A DNA stretch of 64,000 nt from positions 85,008-149,007 of the forward strand of contig DAONGE010000001.1 of assembly GCA_035403965.1 (NCBI GenBank), read 5' to 3'. The DNA is from Candidatus Omnitrophota bacterium. GTDB taxonomy: Bacteria; Omnitrophota; Gorgyraeia; Tantalellales; Tantalellaceae. The notes beneath the pieces were generated by a model, which worked only from the letters and a program-made list of their open reading frames with translations, had not been told where the DNA came from and searched no databases. Shown here in pieces: positions 12,493-63,161 of the stretch; within the stretch, counting starts at the first letter, position 1; every line of letters begins with the position of its first letter. The position numbers were made by a program, and so were the translations under genes.

Positions 12493-12601
12493 CTCTAAAA
12501 TTTTGAGATATTGATCATTAAATTATGAATAGTGTGTTATGGCAAGGCAAATGCTAATTTGCGATAAATAAACAGATGAATGCGTAAATTTAAAATAGGA
12601 G

Positions 12602-13699: not shown

Positions 13700-13736
13700 G
13701 GGCGTTGATAACTAGTAGGTATGTTAAAAATATTTT

Positions 13737-14915
13737 TTGTCGTTGTGTCGATCCGGGAAAAATACAAGGGCAGAGGTAATAATAACTCATTTTATGCTGG
13801 AGGGTGGGGGTGTGAATTTTTTTGAACTGTTACTAATGGAGATATTGAACAGTCAATATAACTATTTCACCGATAATTATGACCAGAATAGGTTCGGTCG
13901 AAAATCGTACAGAAGAATGGTTTACGAACAGGTTTTAAGTGTGGTCAATAGTGTCATGCGTTATCTAGGCGTGTATTATTATAGAACCGGTTACAAGAAG
14001 AATATAGGGGCTATAAGAAATATTGGCGGTTATTTTGACGCATTCAATAGTGTGTATGATTTGTTGGAAGATGATTATTCCAAGAAGTTACTTGTTAAGA
14101 TAATCGCCTACAGGATAATGGGCGAAAAAAAGGTTAAACTGCCTTTGAATAACCCGACCTATTGGGATCATATAAAGAAAATTAAGAGCATAGTTTCCAA
14201 AACTGATAAATTGTGTATAGATTTTTTAGGTTGGGAACTTAATAGGATAGATCTCAACCTGTTAAATATTCCGGTTGTCTATTTTTCACGGCCTACCGGG
14301 GCGGCCTTGTTATGGTTTCTGCGGCTCTACCAGGGAGGTCCTGGCAAAACGATAAGAGTGCGTCCGGGAGATGTAGTTATAGACTGCGGCTGTTGCTGGG
14401 GAGATACTGCGCTTAAGTTCGCTTTTGATGCGGGTAGGAAGGGACATATTTACTCTTTTGAAATTAACCAGAAAAACATTGAGGTTGCAACGAGAAATTT
14501 TGAACTTAATCCCGTACTGAAAGCTAACATTCAGCTTATTAATGCTGCGTTGTGGCATGAAAGTGACAAAGAGATTTTAGTCGACGATAATGGTCCGGGG
14601 TCAGCTTTTACGATCAAGAATACAAAGAATAACATTGTTGCAAAAACTCTAACGATCGATGATTTTGTCGAGCGATGGAATATTAGACAGGTGAATTTTA
14701 TAAAAATGGATATTGAAGGTGCGGAATTGAAGGCCCTGGAAGGTGCAAAAAAAACCATCCAGAAATTTAAGCCTAAATTGGCGATATCTCTTTATCATAC
14801 TTTGGATGATTTTGTAAATATTCCCAAGTTTGTAAAAGAAGTGAATAAAGACTATAAATTATACGTAGAACATTTTTCTATCCACAGAGAAGAAACTGTT
14901 CTTTTTGCAGGTTAA
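13737..14915 (+). CDS. FkbM-family methyltransferase
   Basis: VIDCGCCWGDTALKFA is the SAM-binding motif and FIKMDIEGAELKALEGA is the conserved FkbM/Methyltransf_21 block. The start is uncertain: 13737 is TTG, and ATG alternatives lie at 13794 and 13836. Confidence 0.6.
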   Translation: MSLCRSGKNTRAEVIITHFMLEGGGVNFFELLLMEILNSQYNYFTDNYDQNRFGRKSYRRMVYEQVLSVVNSVMRYLGVYYYRTGYKKNIGAIRNIGGYFDAFNSVYDLLEDDYSKKLLVKIIAYRIMGEKKVKLPLNNPTYWDHIKKIKSIVSKTDKLCIDFLGWELNRIDLNLLNIPVVYFSRPTGAALLWFLRLYQGGPGKTIRVRPGDVVIDCGCCWGDTALKFAFDAGRKGHIYSFEINQKNIEVATRNFELNPVLKANIQLINAALWHESDKEILVDDNGPGSAFTIKNTKNNIVAKTLTIDDFVERWNIRQVNFIKMDIEGAELKALEGAKKTIQKFKPKLAISLYHTLDDFVNIPKFVKEVNKDYKLYVEHFSIHREETVLFAG

Positions 14916-41588: not shown

Positions 41589-42053
41589 TTATTTATTTTC
41601 AGTTAGTTTAATGGTCCCCACCGCTACCGAAGACGGGATCTTTCCGGCAAGTCCGTCATTTATGATCTTTTCGGCTTTTTGGAGTGCTGTCGCGCTTGCC
41701 GAACATATGGTCATAACGGTTTTGCTGTCGCTTGAAGCGGCAAAAAAGAAACCCACTTGTGTGGTGTTGGTCTGCTTGGGATAATCCATCGATACGATAT
41801 AACCTTTTGCGAGACTTTTGCGATATATCATGATATCGTTACCTTGCAATATATTTACGATCTTGTCGAATGCGTCTTTGATGGGCATATCGAGTTCTTT
41901 TTTTATCCCTTTATCGCGTGTTTTTTCGAGATCCGACAGGCTTATTCCAAGGACGTCACTGAAACTTTCCGGATAGGAGACGCAGCCGGATAATCCAAAT
42001 GATGATATGATCAGACACATGGCCAAGGCTAACGCAGTTCCGGAACGTTTCAT
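41589..42053 (-). CDS. hypothetical lipoprotein
   Basis: Signal peptide with a lipobox (SSFGLSGC). 154 aa. No known domain. Confidence 0.5.
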   Translation of the reverse strand: MKRSGTALALAMCLIISSFGLSGCVSYPESFSDVLGISLSDLEKTRDKGIKKELDMPIKDAFDKIVNILQGNDIMIYRKSLAKGYIVSMDYPKQTNTTQVGFFFAASSDSKTVMTICSASATALQKAEKIINDGLAGKIPSSVAVGTIKLTENK

Positions 42054-42332
42054 TGCAGGATCCTTTCAATAGTTAAGATTTTTATAAATTATATCTCCTC
42101 AAAACATAAAACACAAGCGGCAAAATATGGTGGATGTGAATCAGCGCAACAATAAATGCAATTTGCATTAAAGCCCCATTTGTATTATCATATCGGATAT
42201 TTAAAGAAAGGGTTGAAAAAAACAACAACCTTTTTCTTGAATTAACAGTAGTACTGTGATAAAATGTTTCCATAATCGAGCGTATTGTTAACAAAATAGC
42301 ATCTTAAATTTGCTGCAACGAAAGGAGAAGTA

Positions 42333-45300
42333 ATGTTCTCTTCACTTAAACGGTATGTAAGCGCGATTATAATCATCGTTTTTACATCAACAAATTCTTG
42401 TTATGGTCTTGATACCTCAAGTTTACTCAATTCGCAGGATATTTCTACGGATTATCGTTTTGGCGCAAAACCTCTTACGCCCGAAGGAGAAGCGGCACAG
42501 CAGGTGACAAGTTACAGCATATCTTTCACTGCGCTCGCCGAAGAAATAGCAAAGTATTATCTGGGTGATGTGAAAGGTGTAAAAAACGCGGCTGGTCTTC
42601 GTAAAGTTCTTAGGGAGGGTTTTAATGTTGAAGAATCGGAACAGGCGATACGTTTACTTGAGGGGCAGGTATTCGATCTTAATGATATAAAAATAGAAAA
42701 CGGCATAGTTAGTATCAAATTTGAGGAAAAGTTTAAACTGAAAGAAGCGTTGATTTGTAAAACTAGCGAATTATATGCATACCCCGCAAAAGATATGACT
42801 TGGTCCACTATCGGTGAGTATTCTATCAGTATCAGAGAGTATCAGGAGAAAGGTGCTAATGGAGAAAAAGATTTTAAAGGCACATATGCTCCGTCCACAG
42901 ATCCCGAAATATTAGAGTTGATCAAACGTGGGCAAGTAGTGGAAGTTTATCCGGATAGTCAAACGGGGCATCTTAAAGCAAATCGTATAAAACTTACAAA
43001 AGATTACGCTCCTATAAGAACCCCGGCCGACATTTATCGCGGACAGGATGTGGATCTGAGACAGTTGTTTACGGAAAAAGAGATTGCCAAACTTGAGAAC
43101 TGGATAAGATCCAATTATGTAAGAGGTTCTCCCGTAAAATTCAGGGTGATAATGGGAGATATCGCGCTAGGCTGGAGGGATGACGTGGATCATTCGATCA
43201 TAGGCCATGCGGCCGTACGAGATAAGGCGATATATATAGGGAGTTTACTTTTGTCCGAGGCATTGAAAGAAGAGAATAATTCATTGTGGCACAGCATAAT
43301 AGAAGAAGACGAGCTGCGTCATTTGCGTGGTTTGGATCATGGTGACGAAAATGCATATAAGGACAGGCTGAATAAAGTAGCCGGGGTCGTAAAAGACGCG
43401 CAGTTAGTGGAGATACGTCAGGCGATGATGAATAGAGATGTGTATTTTATAAAAGGGCTTTTGGAAAAGCACATTAGCCAGAATGATACAAAGAGTCTTT
43501 TAAAAACGATATTTATCGCGAATAATTCGGCACTTAGTTTATATACCGCCCCGTTAGAAAGCCGGTATCCATTCAAGCAAGCCGTCGCGCTTTTGTCGCG
43601 TGATGAGCAGAATAAACTTTTGAATGCGCTGGAAAGCGAAGAAGCGAAAGAATACAGAAATCTTATACTTGTTGACGAGATTTTTCTTATGCTCGTCGAT
43701 AATGAATTTGAATATTTGAAAGATTGGATAAAGAACAATGCCGCTAATTTAGAAGGTCGTTCCATATGGGAAGTGTCTCCCGAAATATGGCATGAAGCGG
43801 GAGGACTCGCGAGGGTTATGCAGTATCATGGCGCTGAAATGAGGGCACTCATCAGTGAATCGAATATACGATTTAGGCAATTGGAACCGCACTATCAGAA
43901 CCGTATAGATGCTTTTGGAAACGCATCTCCGTTCGATTATAGGAAAGATATAACACATCCGATACAGTCGTTGGAGGAAGTGGATAGTTTTTATGTAAAC
44001 GTTGGAGGGCGTGAGGTTAAGGTGGTAGTAAGCCGCGGGATCAATGATCTGGGGATAGAAGTATACCTTATTAGAGATATACAGGATGATGGAACAAGTT
44101 ATTATACTCATTCGTTATACAACTATTCCGATGCTTCTCCATGGGGTAATCACGCCAATATCCCGACCTGGGAAGAGTTCTCTGTTTTTTATTCGAAAGC
44201 GGCTCTCAAGTTTATAGAAAGACAGGAGAACAAAGAAAGAAAAACAGATCTTAAATGGAAGGCCCCTGTGGTCCATTTAAACGATTCGCAGGTGGCGTTA
44301 GTCTCGGTGTATGCCAAGATAGAGTTGGATAAAGAAATAGAAAAAGCTGAAAAAGACAACTCATACATAGTTAACCCGGTTTTAGACGATATGGTCATGT
44401 GTTTTACAACCCATACATACGCGAACCGTAAAGAGTATTCTCTTGAGGGTGGGGCAAACGATTACAGCGAAGGGATAATGAGTTTTATGGATATTCCTTC
44501 CAAATATCGAGGGTTGTTTGTGAATTATAAACAGGGCGGGTATAGATATGATATGGCATCCGGTGGTTTAAGAACGGCGGATTGGCAGGGCGCGGTAGCA
44601 AGAGCGCACAGAGATGACGTCGCTATCTGGGATGAGTGGATTAATGATCCGTATAACGATATTGCCAATCAATTGAAAGCACAAGTTAATGGATATGACA
44701 TTGAAGTAAATGTTACAGCTGTTTCCAATGGGGATCATCGGGCCCTGACGGCCAGATATTTCAGGGATATATTAAATAAACTTTTCGGTAGTCAAGTCGA
44801 TGTAGAACAGCCTACAGGAGAGCAGATATTTGGTGAAAAGAGAGAAGCAAAAAAACAACTGAAACTTGCGAAAGGAACTTTTTATTCGACACATGATTTT
44901 GAAGTAGATGAAGAAGGTATGTGTACTATACTAGATCCCAATCAAATGGTAATTACATATTCCGGAAGGGGTGTTCCTGAAAAAGTCGGTATGGGTATGG
45001 ATTTTAGAGAATACATTGTTACGGGTACCGATGGAAGAGGGGCCTTTGATCATTATGCGATTGAAGAAGCGCTTAAACGCGGAGCACAAATTGTTTTGTA
45101 TGCGAATGTTCAGACAAAACATGAGTTAAGTAGGCGAATTCAGAAAGACATGATCAAATTTATCGATGATATGAGATCTATGAAATACCCCGGTCGGTGT
45201 ATTTTTGTGCCTCGTTTTAGTCAGGATGATCAACGAAAACTTTTAGCTGCTTCGGATGTTCAGGTCCAAGATTCATATCCTAAAAGCGAGGCTGCGGGTT

Positions 45301-47858
45301 TTACGGAGTGTGATATGGCTGACTGTGGTGGGATAGAGGTCTGTACATTGCGAACTGATAATAACGGTGTTGGTGAGGGGTTACTTCAGGCGCAGGGCAT
45401 GTTGATGGATCTCGGTAGACTTGGAGAATTGAGTATAGAAGAATTGGATCAATTGACAGACGAACAGATTTTGGAGTATCTTGGGGATGCTCCGGGGCGC
45501 GGTAATACGATATTACCTAAAGAGCTTAGTGCCAAGGGATATTTGCACGCATATGTGATCCTTTTAAAAATATATCAGGTAAAACAATTAAAGGCGTATC
45601 AAGCGACATCGGTGCGTTTAAGTCGTGTTCTTGACGCGCGTTTGACATCGGCTGAATATCTCAGGCAGTTCAGTTATGCCGTCAGCAGAAAAGAGACAAA
45701 GAAAAAGATAGGTGAGAAGATAAAGGAGTTGGAGGATATGCAGAGGGCAAGAAAGACGCTGTTGGCGCAGTTATTTACAAATCAAAAAGACGAACCAAGG
45801 GGGTATGCGATACGTAATATTGCGAAGGATGTTTTGTATGGACAGATAGAGTCAGCCCTGATGTTGTTTTTTACTTCGGCGTCATTCCAAGGAGCAGATG
45901 AAAATTTGAGTACCGTCGCAGAAATATTTGATAAATTGATAGAAGCGTATAAAGGCGATAAGGCTACGGGCGAGTATATTATCAGATTTTTAAAGGCTGT
46001 TATTGCGCAGAGCGTTAATATGGCCGAAGAAGACGAAAACCAGAAGAAGGTATCTCAAAATCTCCAGGTTTTGGCCGGCCAGACTTTGACCATAATTTCA
46101 TGGATGAAAGATGGCGTTCCAGAGGCTGAGAATATGCGTGTTTCAGCCGAAGAGAATAAAATGATCGCCAACGATAAATATGGAAAAGGTTTTATCAGTA
46201 TAGATACGAATGCCCTGCCGGTAGGATTGTCGCATACGCAGAAAGAAGGAAAGATAGGCCTTTTCTGGCGAGGTATCGAGAAAATAAAGAAATTAGCAGA
46301 TAATATTTGCAAGTTATTAATGATTGATGACAATATTTTTAAAAAGGCGAAAGAAAAAGTCGTTATGTATTTAATGGATCATGGCTTTATAAAAGTCCCG
46401 CACGGACTCAGAAAAGCTACTGATGACGGAGATGTCAGTACAATACATTATACTGCTTTTATTAATGACAAGTTGCCGGGTTTTGTTCAAACCACAAGTA
46501 CTGGTGCCGGGCATTTTCAGGCCGACAAATTAGATATTAAATATGTGCCCGAAGGAAAAGGGATACAAGTCTGCGTGCGATATGATATGTCCGGTAATAT
46601 CGTGGATAAGAAATGTTTTGAGGTTGAGGCCGGTGACTGGTGTGTGGCTTTGCCGGGCTACGTGGATTATTTTATAAATAAAGGAGGTCTTCGTTTCTAC
46701 GATTTTTCGATAAAGTTATCTCCTGAAATGGCAAAAAAATTTAACCCGCATATGGATTTTACGCCGGAAAACATAGCTGCTATGAAAAAGGTTGTTGAGG
46801 AACATGCTAGGGCCCCGTATTTAGGTGCTTTGATCGGTGGCCAATCATTTATTGTGAAGACAAGGCCGGAAGATGATAATAACACAGAATGGTTAAGCCT
46901 GACTGAGGAGATTCTTCCGGAGTTGGCTGCGAATTATTCGCTTGTAAAAATTTATGCCGAACAATTAACTTCGATGGAAAAATTGAACGCTTTTGTCGAA
47001 GGGTTTGCCGATGCTTATAATAAAAGTTTGGTATCCCCCAAAAAGGGACCTTCTAGCCCGTTGATCATCGAGGATGAAGCAAAAAAAATGATCGATTCGG
47101 AACAACCGGTTCCGGATAAGGGTTATATGGATAAAGTGGAAGGTGTACTGGCGTTTTTGGATGATAACGGTACTTTTATTAAAGAGCTTTTTGACGAAAA
47201 AACAGGACAGGATAAACTTATACGTGTATCTGTTGAATCGATAAGTTCGATAGGAAAGGAAAATGTAGTTGGATTTTTGCAGGCGATACAAACAGGCCGT
47301 GGATATGTAGAGCTTTTCTCGACTGAGAATCCGGGGGAGATCTCGGAAAATGTGTATAAAAATATGGGACTAGTTAAAAAGGCACTTCCGGCATCTCTTC
47401 AAGAAGGGAACAGAAGTAAATCCAATACGATCACCATTTTCCCGGTATTTAAAGGGGAGTCCTTGCCGGAGAGTTTGGTTAATGCCAGATGGGGTGTTGT
47501 CAAACCGGGCGAAACCATTATCGCGCCTGTCGGGTTTAACTATGACGCTGCGGGACTGGCGAGGAGTGTTATGCTTGGATTTCGGTTGTCGGAGATTGCC
47601 AGGAAGAATCTTGATAGTGACAGTCATTTCGTAGAATATACTTTAGCGCAGTACATGGACTTGTGCTTATCTCAAGGTGAAACGGCGGAAAATTTTGATC
47701 TGACGAAAGAAGATATCGTTAATATCGCCTTGGGGAATATTGATGTAATGGTCAGGTCTTTGAATAAATTAATAAGGTTACTTCCGATAATGCCGATCAA
47801 CGTTGAGCAGCTTCATGAGATATACGAGAGGGCCAGAGAGATTGCGATACGCGCGTAG
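42333..47858 (+). CDS. giant (1841 aa) signal-peptide protein with an embedded glycogen/starch-synthase-like GT-B glycosyltransferase domain
   Basis: N-terminus MFSSLKRYVSAIIIIVFTSTNSCYG is a signal peptide or anchor. Residues ~470-520 (VSPEIWHEAGGLARV...RQLEPHY) align by eye with the GT5 N-terminal KTGGLADV block. Residues ~975-1000 (EAAGFTECDMADCGG) align with the GT-B C-terminal E..FG....EAMA.G.P motif. The rest is of unknown function. Confidence 0.7.
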   Translation: MFSSLKRYVSAIIIIVFTSTNSCYGLDTSSLLNSQDISTDYRFGAKPLTPEGEAAQQVTSYSISFTALAEEIAKYYLGDVKGVKNAAGLRKVLREGFNVEESEQAIRLLEGQVFDLNDIKIENGIVSIKFEEKFKLKEALICKTSELYAYPAKDMTWSTIGEYSISIREYQEKGANGEKDFKGTYAPSTDPEILELIKRGQVVEVYPDSQTGHLKANRIKLTKDYAPIRTPADIYRGQDVDLRQLFTEKEIAKLENWIRSNYVRGSPVKFRVIMGDIALGWRDDVDHSIIGHAAVRDKAIYIGSLLLSEALKEENNSLWHSIIEEDELRHLRGLDHGDENAYKDRLNKVAGVVKDAQLVEIRQAMMNRDVYFIKGLLEKHISQNDTKSLLKTIFIANNSALSLYTAPLESRYPFKQAVALLSRDEQNKLLNALESEEAKEYRNLILVDEIFLMLVDNEFEYLKDWIKNNAANLEGRSIWEVSPEIWHEAGGLARVMQYHGAEMRALISESNIRFRQLEPHYQNRIDAFGNASPFDYRKDITHPIQSLEEVDSFYVNVGGREVKVVVSRGINDLGIEVYLIRDIQDDGTSYYTHSLYNYSDASPWGNHANIPTWEEFSVFYSKAALKFIERQENKERKTDLKWKAPVVHLNDSQVALVSVYAKIELDKEIEKAEKDNSYIVNPVLDDMVMCFTTHTYANRKEYSLEGGANDYSEGIMSFMDIPSKYRGLFVNYKQGGYRYDMASGGLRTADWQGAVARAHRDDVAIWDEWINDPYNDIANQLKAQVNGYDIEVNVTAVSNGDHRALTARYFRDILNKLFGSQVDVEQPTGEQIFGEKREAKKQLKLAKGTFYSTHDFEVDEEGMCTILDPNQMVITYSGRGVPEKVGMGMDFREYIVTGTDGRGAFDHYAIEEALKRGAQIVLYANVQTKHELSRRIQKDMIKFIDDMRSMKYPGRCIFVPRFSQDDQRKLLAASDVQVQDSYPKSEAAGFTECDMADCGGIEVCTLRTDNNGVGEGLLQAQGMLMDLGRLGELSIEELDQLTDEQILEYLGDAPGRGNTILPKELSAKGYLHAYVILLKIYQVKQLKAYQATSVRLSRVLDARLTSAEYLRQFSYAVSRKETKKKIGEKIKELEDMQRARKTLLAQLFTNQKDEPRGYAIRNIAKDVLYGQIESALMLFFTSASFQGADENLSTVAEIFDKLIEAYKGDKATGEYIIRFLKAVIAQSVNMAEEDENQKKVSQNLQVLAGQTLTIISWMKDGVPEAENMRVSAEENKMIANDKYGKGFISIDTNALPVGLSHTQKEGKIGLFWRGIEKIKKLADNICKLLMIDDNIFKKAKEKVVMYLMDHGFIKVPHGLRKATDDGDVSTIHYTAFINDKLPGFVQTTSTGAGHFQADKLDIKYVPEGKGIQVCVRYDMSGNIVDKKCFEVEAGDWCVALPGYVDYFINKGGLRFYDFSIKLSPEMAKKFNPHMDFTPENIAAMKKVVEEHARAPYLGALIGGQSFIVKTRPEDDNNTEWLSLTEEILPELAANYSLVKIYAEQLTSMEKLNAFVEGFADAYNKSLVSPKKGPSSPLIIEDEAKKMIDSEQPVPDKGYMDKVEGVLAFLDDNGTFIKELFDEKTGQDKLIRVSVESISSIGKENVVGFLQAIQTGRGYVELFSTENPGEISENVYKNMGLVKKALPASLQEGNRSKSNTITIFPVFKGESLPESLVNARWGVVKPGETIIAPVGFNYDAAGLARSVMLGFRLSEIARKNLDSDSHFVEYTLAQYMDLCLSQGETAENFDLTKEDIVNIALGNIDVMVRSLNKLIRLLPIMPINVEQLHEIYERAREIAIRA

Positions 47859-47890
47859 TTCACGCATACGCGAAAAATATATGTATCGAA

Positions 47891-47935
47891 GGGGCGGAGG
47901 ACATCAAAAGATGTGCGCCGCCCCTTTTGTTTGGT
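47891..47935. terminator. bidirectional rho-independent terminator
   Basis: Stem GGGGCGG...CCGCCCC with a 20-nt loop, followed by TTTTGTTTGGTGTTTTT. It lies between the giant gene (+) and the EF-hand gene (-). Confidence 0.5.
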
Positions 47936-47939
47936 GTTT

Positions 47940-48320
47940 TTAAAGACTTTCTTCGATCTCCTGCGATTCCTGCAGATCCAGCATTCCGTCATTGTTTGTA
48001 TCGAATTTTTTCTCGTGAACTGACTCAACTTTTGCTTTGCCTCTGGCGTGAATAAGTGAGTTCTTATGTTGCAGTAACAGTTTGATCTCATCCAGGTTAA
48101 GCGAGCCGTTTTTGTTTTTGTCGAATTTCTTCTCGATCGGTGTCACGGCCGGGGTTTCGGTCTGAGCCGGTTTTGCTTCCTCTTTCGCGGCGGGCGCCGT
48201 TTGTTTGGCTTTGTGCGCCGGCTCAAAATTCACATTTTCGCCTTTTGAAGGGGCTGAAAAGGCCGCAGAAGGGGCGAGCGTGAGTGAAAACATGATAAAA
48301 AAAGATAGAAGTTTTGCCAT
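47940..48320 (-). CDS. secreted EF-hand calcium-binding protein
   Basis: Signal peptide MAKLLSFFIMFSLTLAPSAAFSA. Two canonical EF-hand loops: DKNKNGSLNLDE and DTNNDGMLDLQE. Confidence 0.65.
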   Translation of the reverse strand: MAKLLSFFIMFSLTLAPSAAFSAPSKGENVNFEPAHKAKQTAPAAKEEAKPAQTETPAVTPIEKKFDKNKNGSLNLDEIKLLLQHKNSLIHARGKAKVESVHEKKFDTNNDGMLDLQESQEIEESL

Positions 48321-48428: not shown

Positions 48429-49868
48429 GTGCTATTTGCGTTTTGTCGTGAGATGACAATTGGGAGAACAATGGTCGGTTTTTTAAAATATAATATGATC
48501 CGTATCAGTGCGATATGTTTAGCGGTGATGTTTTGTGTAAGCGCCTGCGGCCGTCGCGAGGTTGGTTTATTTGAATATGTGCGTAAAGGGCAGAAGTTCA
48601 TAGAAGAAGGAAAATACCAAAAAGGGCTTATGCTTCTACATAAGGCATACGAAGAAGCCCCGGACAGTAAGGATATCGCCGAAAACCTTTTTTATGGATA
48701 TTTGAAATATGCCGAAGTTCTTGAGAGTGACGGTGAGTTGGATAAGGCCATAGATTATCTTTCGATGGCGTATGAGATGGAACCTTCAAACATGGTGGTT
48801 TCGAATAATTTAGCGGTTCTCATATGCAAAAAAGCCGTAAACGAGACGGAAAATGGCGATTATACGCGAGCTATGGAGCTTTTGAAACAGGCCGTTGGAA
48901 TGGTGCTCGAATTCAAAAAGCCGAGAGAGAACGTATCAGCGTTTCTTTTTAATTCGTCAGTGGAGGCGTATAACCGGCGTGATCAGAAAGCCGCGTTTAT
49001 GTTCCTGACGGCGTCACATTTGCTGGTGAACAGGTTCGAGACACATTATATGCTGGGACAGTATTTTTACGATATTGGGAAGCTGGACAAGGCCGAATTC
49101 TACTGGGAGAAAGCTCTTAAAATGAAACCGGGCAATACAGAGGTGAAGGATAAACTTGATAAAGTATACAAAGAGAGAAATATCAAAAGTGAAATGATAG
49201 GGATGGATACGGCGCATTTCAAGATACAGTTTTATCGTGATTATGACATCGATGCCGCTAAACTTGACGAAATATTTGTAAGGATATATAACGGGGTCGG
49301 CGATGATCTGGATTATTTTCCGGCAACTGATACCGGTGCGATATTTTATTCCGAGGATGATTTCCGGAAAATATTTAATCAGAGCGGCATAGTAAGGGCA
49401 TTCTATGACGGTAAGATAAGGATGTTCCTTTCTTCCGGAATAGACGATCCGAATTTCCCCGGTCTGATGGCGCATGAATATACGCATGCCGTTCTTTCGA
49501 TGATGACAAATAATCATTGCCCCGTATGGCTTCATGAAGGGATCGCGACATACGAGCAAAGTAAGTATATGCCGGTTAACAGCGGTTTTGTCAGGGCCTT
49601 TCTTGCGTCCGGGGAACGTGTGGAACTCGCGAAACTTGAAACGGGTTTTTCCAGCAAAGAGGTAAGGATCTTGGGGCTGAGTTACGAAGGTTCTTATTTC
49701 GCCGTAAGTTTTGTGATAAATAAATGGGGATGGTCCGGATTACGGGGGCTTTTGGAAAGAATAAAAGACGGCGAGCATTATGCTAACGCGATAGATGAGG
49801 AATTCCTTATATCGACGGAATCCTTTGAAGCTATGATGAATTACTACATAAAAAAGAAACTGAAATAA
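48429..49868 (+). CDS. TPR-repeat lipoprotein with an HExxH zinc-metallopeptidase-like motif
   Basis: Probable lipoprotein start near 48471 (MVGFLKYNMIRISAICLAVMFCVSACG). TPR-like repeats occur at residues 60-250. HEYTHAV (HExxH) plus a downstream HEG fits an MA-clan-like domain. Confidence 0.55.
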   Translation: MLFAFCREMTIGRTMVGFLKYNMIRISAICLAVMFCVSACGRREVGLFEYVRKGQKFIEEGKYQKGLMLLHKAYEEAPDSKDIAENLFYGYLKYAEVLESDGELDKAIDYLSMAYEMEPSNMVVSNNLAVLICKKAVNETENGDYTRAMELLKQAVGMVLEFKKPRENVSAFLFNSSVEAYNRRDQKAAFMFLTASHLLVNRFETHYMLGQYFYDIGKLDKAEFYWEKALKMKPGNTEVKDKLDKVYKERNIKSEMIGMDTAHFKIQFYRDYDIDAAKLDEIFVRIYNGVGDDLDYFPATDTGAIFYSEDDFRKIFNQSGIVRAFYDGKIRMFLSSGIDDPNFPGLMAHEYTHAVLSMMTNNHCPVWLHEGIATYEQSKYMPVNSGFVRAFLASGERVELAKLETGFSSKEVRILGLSYEGSYFAVSFVINKWGWSGLRGLLERIKDGEHYANAIDEEFLISTESFEAMMNYYIKKKLK

Positions 49869-49914
49869 GTGGATATCCAGCAAATGTCCGGTAAAGACGC
49901 GTATTTTTCACGAT

Positions 49915-51348
49915 TTGCCGTATAAAACATATTTCTGGCGGTTAACGGCGCTAAAGAGAAATAGAGAGGGGTACACTGTGGATAAAAAGGGTTTAATATG
50001 TATGATGTTAATATTTTGTTTATCGTCGTCGGCTATCGCCGCCGTGAATATTTCGCGTGAAGAAGCCAGCAAAGATCCGAGAAAATGCGCGCTTCTTCTA
50101 GCATATAGAATAACGGATATTTATTATAAGCCGTGGATGCTTTCAGAAGTAGTCCTGAAATTTCTAGGGACAAAAGACAGTGCGGTGATCCCGGAGGTGC
50201 TTTCCGACGCGGAAAAAATAGCACGGGGACTGGACAACGCATCATACCGATCTGATGCCTTGCTTGAGGTCGCCCGCGGATATGCCAAAACCGGAGAGTT
50301 CGAAAAGGCTTTGAATATCGCCGGTAGTATAGAGGCGCTGTTGCCGAGGGTTAAAACTTATTGTCTGATATCGCGTTTATATGTCGAAGGGGGCAAGGCC
50401 AAAGAGGCGCGCGATGTCCTGACGGTCGGGCTTAGAACGACGGAAGGCAGTACGGATCAGAACATGGATGTCGCGCTTCTTGAAACAGTATCGGCTTTTG
50501 TGAATGCGGACGGACTTGACGAGGCCGTTTCGGTTTCTGAAAAAATAAATAGCGGCGCAAAAAAAACCGAGGCGCGGTGTAAGGTATCAGTTGCGTTTTA
50601 CCGTAAGAACGACGCAAAACAGGGAGACATCGTTTTAGCCGAGGCCGAGACCGTGGCAAAAAATATAGAAGACAGGATAGATACTTCTAACGCATATGTT
50701 GAGATATCTCGCGTGTATCTGGCCAAGGGCGACAAAGCAAAAGCGCTTGGTTTTGTCGGAGAGGCTTTCGATATATCCGAGAAAATAGATTCAAAATATC
50801 TGAAGCCGGAACTATTATCTCGCATAAGCGCGGTGTACGCGGAACTTGGCGAAATAGATCAGGCTATTATTATCGCCGAGTCTATTTCAGACAAGAATTA
50901 CGGGCCGCGCGCGCTGGCGGAAGTGGCTTCTTATTGCGCTTCGACCGGGAATAAAGAGGAGGCGAATAAGATATTGATGGCGGCTTTGGGGAATACAAAA
51001 GGGATACGTTCCGTTTATGCGCAGGCTAACGTAATGGCGGATATAGCCGATAGCTATGCGGGGCTTGGAGATTTTGAGTCTGAACTTTCGGTTTCTGAAA
51101 GCATGAAGGACGATTATAATAAACCGCGTGCATTGGCCAGAACAGCGGTGAATTTTTCAAAGTCAGATAATAAAGAAAAAGCGCAGGAAATATTCTGCAA
51201 GGCCATAAAAGCCGCCGATGCGATCGAAGATGATTTTTATAAAGCATGGGCGTTATCCGAAATATCCGCGGAATATGACAGGGCAGGGCTGGCCCCTGAT
51301 AGGCAGGCATGCACGATATTAAGAAAAATAGTGAATGAGGGGAAATAG
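49915..51348 (+). CDS. hypothetical secreted alpha-helical repeat protein (TPR/HEAT-like)
   Basis: Signal-peptide-like segment LICMMLIFCLSSSAIAAVN. Repeated ~35-aa units follow the pattern Y..A...VA..YA..G....A. The start is uncertain; GTG 49978 is an alternative. Confidence 0.45.
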   Translation: MPYKTYFWRLTALKRNREGYTVDKKGLICMMLIFCLSSSAIAAVNISREEASKDPRKCALLLAYRITDIYYKPWMLSEVVLKFLGTKDSAVIPEVLSDAEKIARGLDNASYRSDALLEVARGYAKTGEFEKALNIAGSIEALLPRVKTYCLISRLYVEGGKAKEARDVLTVGLRTTEGSTDQNMDVALLETVSAFVNADGLDEAVSVSEKINSGAKKTEARCKVSVAFYRKNDAKQGDIVLAEAETVAKNIEDRIDTSNAYVEISRVYLAKGDKAKALGFVGEAFDISEKIDSKYLKPELLSRISAVYAELGEIDQAIIIAESISDKNYGPRALAEVASYCASTGNKEEANKILMAALGNTKGIRSVYAQANVMADIADSYAGLGDFESELSVSESMKDDYNKPRALARTAVNFSKSDNKEKAQEIFCKAIKAADAIEDDFYKAWALSEISAEYDRAGLAPDRQACTILRKIVNEGK

Positions 51349-58153: not shown

Positions 58154-58332
58154 AAATACAGGGTGGTCACAGTATAGCGCATAGTTTGAATTGTTAACGG
58201 CGGAATGATGGAAAAACTGAAGAATTGTTTGTTGAATCCCGTGTTTACGTGTAAGATAATCTGCGGACTTTGTGTAGTAAAATTCGGATAGACGCGTGCA
58301 TGGTAAAACAAAATAAGAGGGAAAAGGACTAT

Positions 58333-60096
58333 ATGAAAAAAATAACCGTGGCTTTGATCTTCTTTTTTCTGGCGAATGTAATTTATTTTACTACCGGGAG
58401 CGTTACTGCGTATGCGGTGGATGAATCAAATTCACGCGATGCGGCTACTGCGAAAACTACGCTTAAGAGATCAGCGATGGCGGCGGAAGCGCTGAAGCAT
58501 TTGGGAGATACTGAGAAGTATGATCCGAGTGCCGCGTACCAGGGAACAGGTGGTAAAGCGGCAGCAGATAAAGCGGCAGCAGATAAAGCGGCAGCAGATA
58601 AAGCGGCAGCAGGTGAATCAAGTATATCCGAGTTTGCCAAGATGAAGAAAGCGGAGGCGGCGGCAGTGAAAAAGCAGATTGAAAACTATAGTAAAAGAGA
58701 GGATACGATTGATTACGGTGCAAACTTGACTCAGGCGAATTCCTCGGCACTTAAAAGGCCGACGGGTGCAACCTTTAGAGACAAGTATAAAGACTATACC
58801 GCCGAGACCCAAGATAAAGGGGAAAAGGCCTCCCAAGCGGGCTTTTATGAGGGAACAAAACAAGGATCCGGTTACAGTAAGCCAAAGACAGAGGCTTCCA
58901 AAACACAGATAATGCTAAACAATGTGGGTAAAGCACCTGAGGCGGCGCAGGAGAGAAATTTGACAGACGCGAAACAATTGATCGTTGGAAACGCCACAGC
59001 GGGAAAAACGGCAGCGGATAAAGCAGCAGCAGATAAGGCAGCAGCGGAAAAAGCGGCAGCTGAAAAAGCCGCTGCTCAGAAGGCAGCCACTGACGCAAAA
59101 GCTCTAGCGGCGGAAAAACAGGCTGCGGCGGAAAAAGCCGCGGTTTTGGCGGCAAAAGCCGCCGCTGACGCAAAATCTGCCACCGTGATAAGGGAACATG
59201 CGGATAGAAGATTAAGCGGAACAAAAAGTGCAGTCGAAAAGGCGAAAAAAGAAGGGATTCCTTCGGGTACACAAAATACCATGGACGATGTTGTGAAAGT
59301 AAGAGAGAAATACAAACAGGAAAAGTCTACAGAAGAGAACGCGGCGAAAAAAGCCGCAGAAGACGCGGCAAAAGCGGCGGAAGCAGCTGAAAAAGAGGCA
59401 AGGGAAGCGGCGGAAAAAGCCGCGGAATTAGAGAAAGCCGCCGGAATATCGTCGGGGGATAAAACGGTAAGTCAGGCTGAAGAAGAAGCCAAAAAAGCAA
59501 AAAATTCCGTCGCCGCTGCGAAAAAGGCGCTAGAAAAAGCGATAGAAAAAGTAAAAACAAATAAAGCGGACGCCGAGACAAACTCGCTTGAAATAGAAGC
59601 AGCGAAAAAGACAGCGGATGATTTTGAAAAAAGGGCGGAAGATTATGCCAGAGAGGCGCAAAGGCTGAAAGAAGAAGCTGAAAAGAAAAAAGGAACTAGT
59701 GATGAAGCAGCTGCTAAACGGCGAGCAGATCTGGCAGCACAGGAAGCGGATAGAGTAGCTAAAGAAACTGCCGGACCGAAACAAAAGGTGAAAGATCATA
59801 TGGTCAAAGCCGCATCCTTGGACCGCGCGATAAAATCAGCGGAAGAAGAAATAGAAAAAGCGGCAAAGGCTTTATCAGCTGCGAAAGCCGCAGCGGCGGC
59901 GGCGGATAGGGCGGTAGCTGACGCCACCGAGCGCGAAAAAGCGACATCGAAAAATAACGATAAGGGGGAAAATCAATCCGCTAATAACGATCTAAAGTCT
60001 CTGAAAGATGACATGGCGAATGATAACGAGATATTGGATACAAAAGATATACAGGCGCAAAAACAGGCACAAAACGAGATAAGTCCGTCACGATAA
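58333..60096 (+). CDS. secreted Ala/Lys/Glu-rich low-complexity protein (predicted long alpha-helical; TolA-domain-II-like composition) with the conserved C-terminal tail
   Basis: Ribosome-binding site GAGGGAAAAGG precedes ATG 58333. Signal peptide MKKITVALIFFFLANVIYFTTGSVTAYA. Contains (AADKA)n and EKAAKEAAE repeats. It ends DDMANDNEILDTKDIQAQKQAQNEISPSR. The ORF track's upstream start at 58270 was rejected. Confidence 0.6.
   Translation: MKKITVALIFFFLANVIYFTTGSVTAYAVDESNSRDAATAKTTLKRSAMAAEALKHLGDTEKYDPSAAYQGTGGKAAADKAAADKAAADKAAAGESSISEFAKMKKAEAAAVKKQIENYSKREDTIDYGANLTQANSSALKRPTGATFRDKYKDYTAETQDKGEKASQAGFYEGTKQGSGYSKPKTEASKTQIMLNNVGKAPEAAQERNLTDAKQLIVGNATAGKTAADKAAADKAAAEKAAAEKAAAQKAATDAKALAAEKQAAAEKAAVLAAKAAADAKSATVIREHADRRLSGTKSAVEKAKKEGIPSGTQNTMDDVVKVREKYKQEKSTEENAAKKAAEDAAKAAEAAEKEAREAAEKAAELEKAAGISSGDKTVSQAEEEAKKAKNSVAAAKKALEKAIEKVKTNKADAETNSLEIEAAKKTADDFEKRAEDYAREAQRLKEEAEKKKGTSDEAAAKRRADLAAQEADRVAKETAGPKQKVKDHMVKAASLDRAIKSAEEEIEKAAKALSAAKAAAAAADRAVADATEREKATSKNNDKGENQSANNDLKSLKDDMANDNEILDTKDIQAQKQAQNEISPSR
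58556..58611 (+). repeat. tandem 15-nt coding repeat (aaagcggcagcagat x ~3.7) encoding (AADKA)n
   Basis: Direct inspection. Similar imperfect 15-nt arrays lie at 59010-59060 and 60913-61003. Confidence 0.7.
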
Positions 60097-60241
60097 AGGA
60101 TATGGTTTTAAAAGACGAGGGAACGAATAATTATACGTTTTAATTTTGATATGCGGAATAATGTGTGGTACTGTTGTAAAGATATTCTGACGGAAAGGAA
60201 GCGGTGAAGATGAATCTTTGCAACAACAATTTGAGGAGCTT

Positions 60242-61975
60242 ATGAAAAAACTTACCATTAGCATTGCCTGTTTTTTTCTGATGAACATTATATGTTGTAC
60301 GGCTTCGGATGTCAGTGTGGCCGATGAATCAAAAAATATAATCACTCCGGGGAATTCTAACTTGACAACAGGATCAGGGACAGGCGCGGCATCAAAAGAC
60401 GAGACAAAAAAAGGAGCTTCTGGCGCAAATGTTCGCGCGGGTGCAGGCGCAGGTGGATCCGCAGCTGCTGGACTAACAAGTGGAAAGCTTGCAGGCATTT
60501 CCAGTGGAGTAGCCGCAGTAGCTGCTGGAATAGCCGCAGCGTCTGGAGCCGGAGGAGGTGGTGGAGTAGTACCATCATCAGGAGCAGGTGCGAAATCAAC
60601 CGCTGCAGCGGATAAAGCGGTAATAGCCGCAGCCGCAGCAGCAGTAACAGTATCAGATCAAGCGGCAACGTATAAAGCAGCAGCGGGTGTATCTGATCAA
60701 AACGATGGGGCTACTACGAAAACTACGTCTCAGAAATCAGCGGCGGCGGAGGCAGCACTGAATCAGCTGAAAAATTTTGGTAAAGATAAGAAAAAATATG
60801 ATCCAGGTGCCGCCTTGACTAAGGCGGATTCCTCGGCAATAAAAAATGCGTTGGGTTCAACTGATGCGAAACAACAAGCCTTTAGTACCAAGTACCAGCA
60901 ACCAGGTGAGAAGTCGGCAGCAGAAAAAGCAGCAGCGGATAAAGCGGCGGCAGATAAGGCAGCAGCAGATAAAGCCGCGGCAGATAAAGCAGCCGCAGAG
61001 AAGTATTCAGCCGCGGAAAAAGCCGTAGTAGAGAAGGCTAAAGCTTCTGTCGCGTTAACCGCGGCGGAAAAGGCGCAAGCCGAGGCGGAAAGCGAATTGA
61101 AGAAATTGGAAAGTATGGACTCCGCAACGCGATTTCTACTCTTTGGTGTAGCTAGGGAGGGGGATCAAAAATATAAGGGAGCTCTAAAAGAAGCGGAAGC
61201 GAAAGTTGCCGCGGCAAAAGAGGCGACAGAGAAAGCTGAAAAGACGGCAGAGGAAACTAAAGAAGCGGCGGATAAAGCTGAAAAAGAGGCGATAGACGCC
61301 GCTAAAGCGGTAAAAGCCCTTACAGTCGGGGCTACAGGAGAAAAAACAGCGACGGAAAAAGCGGCAGCGGCGGAAAAAGCGAAAAAGGAAGTTAGCGAAG
61401 CAAAAGACAATGTTAAGGCGACGGAAAAAGCCGCCGCTTTGGCGGTAGAAAAAGCAGCCGAAGCCGTGGCAAAAATAAAAGCGAATAAAAAAGCGGCGGA
61501 AGAAGCCAAGTTAGCGGCAGAACAAAAGACAAACGATGCAAAGGAAATAGCAAGAAAGTTAGAGGCGGCAAAAGAAGTTAAGGAAAAAGAAAATAAAAGA
61601 GGGAACACCAATCGTGCAACCGATCTGGTGATCACAAGGAATACAGCATCCCTTGAAGAGTATAAAGCAGAAGCAAAAAAATTCCAGCAGGAAGAGGCTG
61701 ATAGGTTAGCGGAGATAAAAAAATTAGAAGCAGAGGCAAAATTAGCTGAAGAAGAAGCCGAAAAAGCGGCATTAGCGGCATTGTCGGCAAGAAAGGTGTT
61801 AGCTGACAAATCATATGAGGCAGAAAGAGCGGAAGAAGCCGCGAAAGGTACGTCAAGTAAAACAGGTTCGGCGGATAAAGACCTAAAGTCTTTGGAAGAA
61901 GACATGGCGAATGATAACGAGATATTGGATACAAAAGATATACAGGCACAAAAAGAGATAAGTCCGTCACGATAA
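60242..61975 (+). CDS. secreted Gly/Ala-rich then Ala/Lys/Glu-rich low-complexity protein, paralog of 58333-60096, with the conserved C-terminal tail
   Basis: Ribosome-binding site GAGGAG precedes ATG 60242. Signal peptide MKKLTISIACFFLMNIICCTAS. Shares KKYDP.AA and (AADKA)n with the upstream paralog. It ends EEDMANDNEILDTKDIQAQKEISPSR. Confidence 0.6.
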   Translation: MKKLTISIACFFLMNIICCTASDVSVADESKNIITPGNSNLTTGSGTGAASKDETKKGASGANVRAGAGAGGSAAAGLTSGKLAGISSGVAAVAAGIAAASGAGGGGGVVPSSGAGAKSTAAADKAVIAAAAAAVTVSDQAATYKAAAGVSDQNDGATTKTTSQKSAAAEAALNQLKNFGKDKKKYDPGAALTKADSSAIKNALGSTDAKQQAFSTKYQQPGEKSAAEKAAADKAAADKAAADKAAADKAAAEKYSAAEKAVVEKAKASVALTAAEKAQAEAESELKKLESMDSATRFLLFGVAREGDQKYKGALKEAEAKVAAAKEATEKAEKTAEETKEAADKAEKEAIDAAKAVKALTVGATGEKTATEKAAAAEKAKKEVSEAKDNVKATEKAAALAVEKAAEAVAKIKANKKAAEEAKLAAEQKTNDAKEIARKLEAAKEVKEKENKRGNTNRATDLVITRNTASLEEYKAEAKKFQQEEADRLAEIKKLEAEAKLAEEEAEKAALAALSARKVLADKSYEAERAEEAAKGTSSKTGSADKDLKSLEEDMANDNEILDTKDIQAQKEISPSR

Positions 61976-61997: not shown

Positions 61998-63161
61998 ATG
62001 AGAAAATATCTAATCAGATCAGTTGTCGCGTTGATAGTGGGGATAGGCATGATCTCGCCTGATACCGGTTTCGCATGGGAAAAGGGCGCGGTCAAGGTTG
62101 ATTCTTTCTTTAAAACACAGGAACAGTGGGACAGTAACGTTTTCTACGATCATGACGACCCGCAACACGATTTTATAACGATACTTACGCCCGGGATAGC
62201 CGGTGAATATGGTTTTGGGGTGGGGAAAAAACATAAAATTTGGACAAAATATCTTTGTGAAATGGGTATCTTTGGAAAATATGATGAGCAGAACTATGGA
62301 AACCATGATGCTCAAGGCGGCATATTCCTGGATATGGACAAATATACGGTCGATGTGAATAACCGTTTTCAGTTCACTTCAGACAGGGCCGGCACGGAGT
62401 TTGAAAACAGAACCTTGCGAAAAATAGATACATTGAACGCCGTTGTGGGGTGGAATTTCAATAAATTCAGTTTTGATACGGGCTACCAATTTTATATTGT
62501 GAATTTTTTAAGCGATGTTCTTGATGGTTTCAATAGATATGAGAACACGGGTTTTATTACCGGCTATATCGAGATAGCTCCAAAGACCAAAGGCCTTTTG
62601 GAGTTCACTTATACAAATTTGCAATATCCCGACGCCAGCGGTAGGAATGGTAACGCGTACAGGGGTATGGCCGGTGTAAAAGGTGACATAACGGCCAAAC
62701 TGACGGGTATCGCCAAAGCGGGTTATAAGTACAAAGCGTATGAGAATTCTACGATGGAAGATTATTCAAACGCGGCGGCAGAGATCGCCCTTGTATACGC
62801 CATCAACGACAAAATGGATACCACGTTTTCTTATACAAGGGAACCGTTCGAGTCGACGTATAGCAACAACAACTATTACATCGGTGACCATTTTCTTGGC
62901 GCTTATAATTACAGGTTCGGGAACGGTTTTTTATTTAAGACGGAAGGCATGTATTTCCATAACGATTATCCGAATGTGGGATCAGGCGAAACTAAAAAAA
63001 GACGGGATGACGAATGGGCCGTTGGCCCCCGGCTTGAATACGCCTGGAAAGAGTGGATAGTGGTAGGGATTGAGTATAAATTCCATCAGAGACATTCGAC
63101 TATTACCTTGCGTACTTATGATGAGAACGTTGTAAGCAGCGATGTGATGTTTAAGTTCTAA
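61998..63161 (+). CDS. putative outer-membrane beta-barrel protein
   Basis: Signal peptide MRKYLIRSVVALIVGIGMISPDTGFA. Alternating hydrophobic/polar strands rich in Y/F/G/N. The C-terminal residue is Phe (…DVMFKF), typical of OMP beta-barrels. It follows the stop of the preceding gene by 22 nt. Confidence 0.5.
   Translation: MRKYLIRSVVALIVGIGMISPDTGFAWEKGAVKVDSFFKTQEQWDSNVFYDHDDPQHDFITILTPGIAGEYGFGVGKKHKIWTKYLCEMGIFGKYDEQNYGNHDAQGGIFLDMDKYTVDVNNRFQFTSDRAGTEFENRTLRKIDTLNAVVGWNFNKFSFDTGYQFYIVNFLSDVLDGFNRYENTGFITGYIEIAPKTKGLLEFTYTNLQYPDASGRNGNAYRGMAGVKGDITAKLTGIAKAGYKYKAYENSTMEDYSNAAAEIALVYAINDKMDTTFSYTREPFESTYSNNNYYIGDHFLGAYNYRFGNGFLFKTEGMYFHNDYPNVGSGETKKRRDDEWAVGPRLEYAWKEWIVVGIEYKFHQRHSTITLRTYDENVVSSDVMFKF

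Follow-up and report, generated by a model that had tools for sequence, protein, structure and literature searches.

A predicted Sec-exported three-unit protein of Omnitrophota with a GT-B module of the glycogen synthase/phosphorylase superfamily and a cupin

The 64,000-nucleotide window analyzed in this study (Candidatus Omnitrophota bacterium, GenBank assembly GCA_035403965.1, contig DAONGE010000001.1, positions 85,008 to 149,007) contains a 5.5-kb gene at 42333..47858 on the + strand, which encodes a protein of 1841 amino acids (aa). With a probability of about 55%, we consider the product to be a Sec-exported protein of three units that combines a glucosyl-transferring glycosyltransferase (GT) module of the GT-B fold with a sugar-binding-type cupin. 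The protein probably works as an active enzyme after export, either as a transferase of the α-glucan type or in the manner of a phosphorylase. We infer an exported, catalytically competent enzyme that would act on such a substrate and help to obtain carbohydrate from the surroundings of the cell.

The Omnitrophota, nanobacteria that are abundant but uncultured, are regarded as dependent on other cells or as predators of them. They stand out most by enormous exported proteins with many 'cytoplasmic' enzyme domains. The gene described here is a compact, conserved, and foldable example of 1.8 thousand amino acids (kAA), whose ~760-aa catalytic module has a clear predicted active site. At stake are a third, cofactor-less chemistry in the glycogen synthase/phosphorylase superfamily and the question of whether the metabolic domains of Omnitrophota exported proteins work outside the cytoplasm of the producer.

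Gene family and GT-B domain

The gene is a single, intact open reading frame (ORF) that starts with ATG and encodes 1841 aa followed by a stop codon. About 30 homologues of 1750-1900 aa align colinearly with the product from end to end (38-46% identity); therefore, the gene is neither a chance ORF nor frameshifted, in agreement with an initial annotation made from the sequence alone. All these homologues originate from metagenomes or metagenome-assembled genomes (MAGs) named Candidatus Omnitrophota or Omnitrophica, and a partial protein of a Candidatus Omnitrophota MAG in NCBI (P0032) shows 100% identity where it overlaps the query. When one genome per GTDB species was scanned, 40 related loci were found, 38 in Omnitrophota-type MAGs (including Ca. 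Tantalella and Ca. Makaraimicrobium, and some titled 'uncultured Planctomycetia') and two in Elusimicrobia. The 1.8-kAA family is orthologous with a fixed architecture, and conservation spans the entire protein (mean column identity in the family alignment, 42%). The C-terminus L-I-R-A (residues 1838-1841, 47844..47855) is also conserved; its last alanine is invariant in 22/22 members, which hints at a functional C-terminal signal. The G+C content (0.40-0.42) and GC skew of the ORF are like those of the remaining window.

The GT-B domain occupies residues 476-1130 (43758..45722, + strand), as delimited by Pfam, Foldseek, hhalign, and residue mapping. No Pfam family other than PF08323 (starch synthase catalytic domain) exceeded its cut-off in the query (28.2 bits vs. 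22.7, residues 479-666). At E ≤ 1, PF08323 matched 20 of the 22 family members, the best of them at E 3.4e-16. The resemblance to a GT-B enzyme proposed in the initial annotation is thus not coincidental, and both peptides on which it leaned had been placed correctly: WEVSPEIWHEAGGLARV... at residues 479-521 is the true N-terminal GGL loop, and PKSEAAGFTECDMADCGGIEV...VGEGLL at residues 983-1018 is the C-terminal catalytic E-x-x-G-x-T block. TIGR02095, the curated glgA model, scored 19.8 bits, below its cut-off of 328.45. PF00343, which represents GT35, was weakly matched by two of the 22 members (best E 0.0057) and not by the query. PF14871 (GHL6), weak in six members, was judged spurious; it falls on one Rossmann βαβ of the GT-B C-domain.

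In the Foldseek search of the PDB, the top 14 matches were GT35 enzymes (E 4e-16 to 9e-15, ~880 aligned columns, template modelling (TM) score ~0.5 on the target), including E. coli GlgP (E 4e-16); the GT5 granule-bound starch synthase 6gnf_B was matched at E 1.1e-14 with a TM score of 0.68. The full-length family profile retrieved only weak GT35 matches from PDB sequences (E 0.08-0.2), in the block LIFVPRFS...DVQVQDS.P.TEAAGFTE, and full-length phmmer against PDB sequences retrieved nothing relevant. A profile built from 140 module copies aligned in hhalign with whole E. coli GlgA (residues 1-477; probability 94%, E 2.5e-8) and with E. coli GlgP residues 1-775 (probability 90%, E 2e-7); the latter alignment takes in the pre-domain that precedes the GT-B domain. 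The domain therefore belongs to the retaining glucan synthase/phosphorylase superfamily (GT5/GT3/GT35), outside its described families. A GT4/GT5-like core had been proposed at the outset; the domain is of the glycogen-synthase kind, but it is not specifically GT4/GT5, being about equally close to GT35 glycogen phosphorylase and devoid of the KXGGL lysine.

The key residues of the GT-B domain are E484, G490-G491-L492, N650-D651-S652-Q653, H694-T695, N698-R699, N799, R879, K884, S981, E986, and E992. E484, D651, H694, N799, R879, K884, and E986 map onto E9, D137, H161, N246, R300, K305, and E377 of GlgA, respectively; as read from this mapping, the retaining GT-B catalytic residue set is complete. 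The N-terminal loop reads S-P-E484-I-W-H-E488-A-G-G-L-A-R in the query, S-E9-M-F-P-L-L-K15-T-G-G-L-A-D in GlgA, and G-N-G-G-L-G-R in GlgP. V-H-L-N-D651-S-Q corresponds to H-A-H-D137-W-H of GlgA and I-H-L-N-D-T-H of GlgP, and F-T-T-H694-T to F-T-V-H161-N and Y-T-N-H-T, in the same order. S-N799-G-D is aligned with L-N246-G-V-D of GlgA. The phosphate-binding pair lies in S-G-R879-x4-K884 (GlgA, S-R300-x4-K305; GlgP, K-R-x4-K-R). The C-terminal block is S-E986-A-A-G-F-T-E-C-D994 in the query, F-E377-P-C-G-L-T-Q in GlgA, and T-E-A-S-G-T-S-N-M-K in GlgP, whose last residue is the lysine that carries pyridoxal phosphate (PLP). For the motifs HLNDSQ, T-x-HT, GGLAR, and FVPRFS...TEAAG, GlgP is the closer parallel. 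The GT5 KXGGL lysine (E. coli K15) is replaced by E488, which is invariant in the family, and by A/P/L/V in 104 related modules; Lys is never among the four commonest residues at this position. The position of the GT35 PLP Schiff-base lysine is taken by D994, which itself is not conserved, and no conserved Lys occurs there.

An exhaustive hidden Markov model search of 1.84 billion representatives (clusters at 50% identity), with a profile of residues 365-1475, matched 384 clusters at E ≤ 1e-3, of which 297 reached E ≤ 1e-30. A module of ~760 aa, made up of the pre-domain and the GT-B domain, is present in most of the 384 clusters. Among the best 150 matches, about 21 represent the family at full length, more than 100 (675-7335 aa) have only the pre-domain and GT-B domain, placed at varied positions, and about a dozen (760-1100 aa) have only the C-terminal unit. 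Module proteins belong to Omnitrophota wherever names exist. The architecture had initially been called unusual; this holds for bacteria generally, but it is recurrent in Omnitrophota and has been noted at Pfam level in two preprints, which are discussed below.

In 104 modules from outside the family, E484, G490, G491, L492, Q653, H694, T695, N799, R879, K884, S981, and E992 are 100% conserved, and D651, N698, and R699 are 97-99% conserved. The key residues overall are 92-100% conserved in these modules, except S652 and E986. Because residue conservation across modules is near-absolute, the site is likely a selected active site rather than the remnant of a decayed domain.

Units of the protein, the cupin, and the signal peptide

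Two AlphaFold2 models were built with the family alignment as input, one of residues 31-1130 (predicted local distance difference test (pLDDT) 85.4, predicted TM score (pTM) 0.84) and one of residues 1101-1841 (pLDDT 83.5, pTM 0.70). The protein consists of three units (residues 26-364, 365-1130, and 1131-1841), each of which is also found separately or in other combinations. The initial annotation had recognized no features on either side of the GT-B region; an N-terminal α/β domain, a helical pre-domain, a cupin, and a C-terminal α/β domain were found there.

The N-terminal unit (residues 26-364, 42408..43424, + strand) was delimited from the model. It has a low-confidence part of helices and β-strands (~50-170), followed by a conserved α/β domain (~185-345; pLDDT 89-96 for residues 189-331) with the motifs RGSPVKFR, HS.I.HAG.RD..IYIG, and DNDE.RHL.GL.HG. 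The profile of this α/β domain had no credible match in PDB sequences or Pfam. The unit recurs in the paralogous families P0049, P0079, and P0114 with other C-terminal halves; by BLAST, P0049 and P0079 keep the N-terminal unit and the module, and their C-terminal halves differ. The helical pre-domain (residues 365-475, 43425..43757, + strand; helices with pLDDT >90) carries the motif [AY]P[LV]ES.YP.K.AV.LL.K.EQ and is a constant companion of the GT-B domain, conserved in P0028, P0031, and more than 100 other module instances. By hhalign, it aligns to the N-terminal helical region of E. coli GlgP. At the other end of the module, the C-terminal helices of the GT-B domain return to the N-lobe in the model.

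The C-terminal unit opens with a long helix and a helical bundle (residues 1131-1260, 45723..46112, + strand), which are poorly conserved according to the model and alignment. It is followed by the cupin with N-terminal strands (residues 1261-1475, 46113..46757, + strand), assigned from Foldseek and weak PF06560 matches. In the Foldseek search with the C-terminal model, ranks 1-11 were cupin-type phosphoglucose isomerases (PGI) of P. furiosus or T. litoralis (E 8e-6 to 5e-5, TM score 0.53-0.59), and generic cupins ranked after them; the matched region was ~1277-1461. PF06560 was weakly matched in five of 22 members at profile positions 26-135, with a best score of 12.9 bits against a cut-off of 20.7. 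The cupin profile had no credible match in PDB sequences or Pfam, and hhalign gave no significant alignment of it to a P. furiosus PGI sequence.

The invariant residues of the cupin are S1389, T1390, G1391, G1393, H1394, Q1396, D1401, K1403, and L-P-G-x-x-D1445-x-x-x-N1449. We read cupin motif 1 as H1394-x-Q1396-x4-D1401 and motif 2 as G1442-x-x-D1445-x3-N1449. On this motif-based reading, only the first His of the His-His-Glu-His metal ligands of PGI is kept, and the others are apparently Gln, Asp, and Asp, which suggests a modified metal or ligand site. The cupin probably binds hexose or hexose phosphate at the H-x-Q-x4-D...D site. In two Elusimicrobia genomes, a homologue of 362-419 aa that lacks a signal peptide and shares 36% identity with residues 1214-1471 is encoded on its own. 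The gene order in these clusters is GH1 β-glucosidase, GH5 cellulase-family protein, and cupin-unit homologue (L043 3039-6993; L044 3030-7128). Because the stand-alone homologue lies directly downstream of GH1 and GH5 genes, a carbohydrate-related role of the cupin is supported.

Beyond the cupin lie a variable region with a small β unit and helices (residues 1476-1609, 46758..47159, + strand; model and alignment, low conservation) and a C-terminal α/β and helical domain (residues 1610-1841, 47160..47855, + strand; pLDDT ~80-95). The C-terminal domain had no match in PDB sequences or Pfam and no non-cupin Foldseek match in the PDB at E ≤ 1e-3. In a BLAST search, stand-alone C-unit proteins of ~870 aa covered residues 1135-1841 with 37-43% identity and had signal peptides of their own.

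The N-terminus resembles a Sec-type signal peptide (residues 1-25, 42333..42407, + strand), with cleavage placed after C-Y-G25 on the basis of sequence features and homologue conservation. It has an n-region with K6/R7, a hydrophobic core of ~13 aa (within about residues 9-23), and a c-region C-Y-G|L-D, in which small residues occupy positions -1 and -3 of the predicted cleavage site. Of 22 aligned homologues, 19 have the same design with A-x-A-like sites, and the remaining three seem to be truncated at the 5' end. No further transmembrane (TM)-like segment was found elsewhere in the protein. Because the core is short and the n-region is positive, these features, read heuristically, indicate a cleavable Sec signal and a location outside the cytoplasm. 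Of the signal peptide or anchor proposed in the initial annotation, the signal peptide stands, whereas a membrane anchor with a cytoplasmic enzyme does not. A lipoprotein signal was rejected, as T-N-S-C is not a lipobox and its Cys is not conserved.

Signal-peptide-like N-termini were found in 105 of 144 complete module- or C-unit proteins. Among these 105, 51 carry an L[AS]P motif 5-20 residues past the hydrophobic core (2.7% expected), perhaps a common tag for sorting or processing; the query has D-I-S-T where this motif would stand. The partner domains of the signal-peptide-bearing module proteins P0057, P0053, and P0048 are APH-type phosphotransferase, Glu/Leu dehydrogenase, HD, MbnB-like, and S-adenosylmethionine (SAM) methyltransferase domains. 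Module proteins without a signal peptide carry RelA/SpoT and Fic domains or tetratricopeptide repeat (TPR) and FkbO/RidA domains (P0031 and P0028).

Proposed function and alternatives

In the proposed mechanism, an α-glucosyl unit would be bound in the GT-B cleft via D651, H694, N799, and E986, and a phosphate-bearing partner via R879, K884, and the G490-G491 loop. The glucosyl would then be transferred, with retention, between an α-glucan chain and the phosphate-bearing partner. The KXGGL lysine and the PLP lysine are missing, and the protein is predicted to leave the cytoplasm for surroundings in which nucleotide sugars are not known to occur. Cytoplasmic ADP-glucose would therefore be a less likely partner than inorganic phosphate (Pi) or sugar-1-phosphate, with phosphorylase-like chemistry that needs no cofactor, or than another glucan. 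Cofactor-independent retaining GT-B phosphorylases exist in GT4.

Several points weigh against an exported, catalytically active protein of this kind. The periplasm and medium are not known to hold nucleotide sugars, and no cofactor-free phosphorylase is known in GT5 or GT35. The register of E986, which is invariant within the family, is split 68/36 in the automated alignment of other modules, so that this residue may not be universal. The link between the cupin and PGI is one of modeled fold only, with negative sequence profiles and one of four metal ligands retained. Signal peptides are missing from about one quarter of the module proteins, P0028 and P0031 among them. Where signal peptides precede domains dependent on ATP, NAD(P), or SAM, work in an ordinary periplasm is difficult to envisage; the module proteins may act elsewhere, or the N-terminal signal may be no simple export signal. 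Support for function from a conserved gene neighbourhood is absent: none was found in three long homologue contigs and one paralogue contig, where the gene is solitary each time and the surroundings are unrelated between loci.

The protein could instead be an effector that is exported, secreted, and delivered into or onto a host or prey cell, where it would tap or rewire the glucan and hexose-phosphate pools. We regard this as possible but unlikely. The target compartment would hold nucleotide sugars and glycogen, and the cytoplasm-type enzymes of signal-peptide-bearing relatives (APH, Glu/Leu dehydrogenase, HD, SAM methyltransferase) would fit there. Fic and RelA/SpoT-like domains of other relatives are typical of toxins and effectors, but their bearers P0028 and P0031 have no signal peptide. 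Likewise, the L[AS]P motif found after the signal peptide in half of the signal-peptide proteins could be a sorting tag, but the query lacks it. Omnitrophota have been reported as ultra-small cells that depend on a host or are predatory and that secrete giant multi-enzyme proteins; however, no secretion-system genes were found in the window or adjoining the homologues examined, and no translocation domain was recognized. Somewhat less probable still is a non-catalytic scaffold, adhesin, or glucan binder, in which inactive GT-B and cupin domains would bind surface polysaccharide. The loss of both family-defining cofactor/donor lysines and the replacement of three of four cupin-PGI metal ligands are in its favor, as is the frequency in the phylum of large exported proteins of the repeat or adhesin type. 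Against this, E484, D651, Q653, H694, T695, N698, R699, N799, R879, K884, S981, and E992 are conserved near-absolutely in more than 100 highly diverged copies, and a pure glucan binder would not need the phosphate-binding R-x4-K pair.

An ordinary ADP-glucose GlgA, fused to extra domains and anchored in the inner membrane with the enzyme on the cytoplasmic side, is improbable. It would agree with PF08323 as the sole Pfam family above cut-off, with the alignment of the module to whole GlgA, and with the name 'glycogen/starch synthase' that NCBI gives to several homologues. This name is probably misleading for such proteins. The low TIGR02095 score (19.8 bits, cut-off 328) speaks against an ordinary GlgA, as do the replacement of the KXGGL lysine, by Glu in the family and by A/P/L/V in related modules, and the equal similarity to GT35. 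The positive charges before the hydrophobic core place the bulk of the protein outside the cytoplasm, and the membrane-anchored glucan synthase using cytoplasmic ADP- or UDP-glucose that was initially considered does not fit this topology. No glycogen genes were found in the window, and no glgB, glgC, or glgP neighbors in the homologue loci examined. The least probable alternative, very unlikely in our judgement, is a PLP-dependent α-glucan phosphorylase of GT35. Glycogen phosphorylases are the top structural matches and provide the only, albeit weak, sequence-profile matches in the PDB (E 0.08-0.2), and HLND[ST], T-x-HT, GGL[GA]R, and FVP.[FY]S...TEA[SA]G are held in common. However, the Schiff-base lysine of EASGTSNMK aligns to D994, a position at which the family has no conserved Lys, and PF00343 is weak and limited to 2/22 members.

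A Sec-exported protein with a glucosyl-transferring GT-B module and a sugar-binding-type cupin thus remains the preferred reading. More speculatively, the module may be an undescribed family of the superfamily, without a nucleotide-binding lysine or PLP, carried on Sec-exported multi-enzyme proteins of interchangeable parts, a 'metabolic toolkit' that would act in or on host or prey cells and harvest their glycogen and hexose phosphates; we hold this extension to be rather doubtful. If it were true, the 1.8-kAA family would be, among the representatives of the giant-protein phenomenon, the smallest that is both conserved and amenable to experiment.

Genomic context and comparison with known systems

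A Shine-Dalgarno sequence, AGGAG, was read directly at 42323..42327 (+ strand), 5 nt before the ATG. A candidate sigma-70-like promoter, TTGAAT-17-TAAAAT with a TG extension, was suggested by a consensus scan only at 42237..42265 (+ strand), within a 279-nt AT-rich intergenic region. The upstream neighbor (41589..42053) lies on the opposite strand and is divergent, and the downstream neighbor (47940..48320) is convergent; therefore, the gene needs its own promoter and terminator, and its arrangement is geometrically monocistronic, as the initial annotation had supposed. An intrinsic-terminator-like hairpin, GGGGCGG...CCGCCCC, with a U-tract lies at 47888..47935 (+ strand) and is common to the gene and the convergent EF-hand gene. 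The hairpin itself spans ~47888-47927, and the U-tract follows on the + strand. The predicted RNA fold of this stretch is -36.1 kcal/mol (z -6.4), and 0 of 200 shuffles were equally stable. The terminator had been described as strong and bidirectional; the hairpin also forms on the - strand (-25.3 kcal/mol), but the U-tract is not adjacent there.

The gene comes after a glycine-cleavage operon and a lipoate ligase gene, and it faces genes for a small EF-hand protein (126 aa, 47940-48320, - strand) and two TPR proteins (48429-51348, + strand), the first of which carries a Peptidase_MA_2 domain. A similar TPR and Peptidase_MA_2 gene lies ~4 kb upstream of the homologue P0010, which may be a coincidence. 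The remainder of the window contains a surface-polysaccharide cluster, the glycine-cleavage operon, TPR proteins, and comEC. The surface-polysaccharide cluster is long and co-directional (~7200-32500, + strand) and includes genes for a pyruvyl transferase, two DegT aminotransferases, two FkbM methyltransferases, GT2 and GT1-like transferases, an ABC exporter, two B12-binding radical-SAM enzymes, and a NAD epimerase/dehydratase. Two adjacent ORFs without Pfam matches (58270-60096 and 60218-61975, + strand) both have 15-nt GCAGCAGATAAAGCA-type tandem repeats. The translation of the former has an N-terminal hydrophobic segment, is Ala/Lys/Glu-rich, and contains AADKA pentapeptide repeats. An AT skew of ~0.4 coincides with these two ORFs, which are followed by a BBP2_2 β-barrel porin gene (61998-63161). 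Elsewhere, the gene for the paralogue P0033 (1248 aa, module only) is flanked by same-strand ORFs of >3500 aa (L006 1-7679) and 709 aa (11988-14114); large proteins are clustered in this genome.

Compared with GT5 (E. coli GlgA; PF08323 and PF00534), the protein shares the GT-B fold, the contiguous N-terminal S-x-E...GGL loop, equivalents of E9, D137, H161, N246, R300, K305, and E377, and C-terminal helices that cross back to the N-domain. It differs in that HDW is NDS, TVHN is TTHT, and the KXGGL lysine is replaced, and it has large insertions, a pre-domain of ~110 aa, a signal peptide, ~1100 extra residues, and no glg operon context. With GT35 (E. coli GlgP and rabbit muscle glycogen phosphorylase), it shares the N-terminal helical region, the W...R-x-[VI]-[YW]-x-[LV]-S-x-E block, GGL[GA]R, HLND[TS], T-x-HT, R-x4-K, and the C-terminal block F[VI]P.[YF]S...D[LV]..Q.S...TEA[SA]G. 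Unlike GT35, the query has neither the PLP lysine (D994) nor the ~40-aa insertion between S-x-E and GGL, the equivalent of H377 is the invariant Gln Q653, PF00343 is not significant, and the protein is multi-domain and predicted to be exported.

The Thermococcales cupin-type PGI (PF06560) is the closest solved fold to the cupin, and the spacing of cupin motifs 1 and 2 is recognizable; however, the invariant K1403 and the S-T-G-x-G loop of the query have no verifiable counterpart in it. Fungal GT4 trehalose phosphorylase is a retaining GT-B enzyme that uses Pi or sugar-1-phosphate without PLP or a nucleotide. By analogy, the Asp/His/Arg/Lys set on which it relies would correspond to D651, H694, R879, and K884. 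It belongs to another CAZy family and its substrate is trehalose, and the likeness drawn here is a mechanistic one.

Within the phylum, the closest parallels are the giant proteins described in two preprints. GT5 glycogen-synthase-like domains are reported as the second most common domain type in the Omnitrophota 'Archaeovorins' (West-Roberts et al., bioRxiv 10.1101/2023.11.21.568195). PF08323 is reported in 153 of 916 catalogued Omnitrophota proteins of at least 10 kAA, and metabolic domains are placed on the exported side of the giants (2026 preprint, 10.64898/2026.06.07.730766). The passages of both preprints considered here treat the PF08323 domain at the Pfam level and contain no description of the 1.8-kAA family, module boundaries, missing lysines, cupin unit, or stand-alone C-terminal unit. 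As described in those passages, the Archaeovorins and the sugar-metabolism 'Module 2' proteins share with the query the phylum, a PF08323-type domain, and metabolic domains behind signal peptides. The proteins catalogued in the 2026 preprint have at least 10 kAA, against 1841 aa in the query, and the giant genes of the 2023 preprint are marked by dockerin, TSP3, or HEAT content; no TM helices, dockerin, HEAT, or TSP3 were detected in the query. According to the same passages, the giants are mostly sequence-unique, whereas the query belongs to a conserved family of fixed architecture. We regard the protein, with its predicted function, as a novel variant of an established superfamily and as part of a phenomenon already recognized across the phylum.

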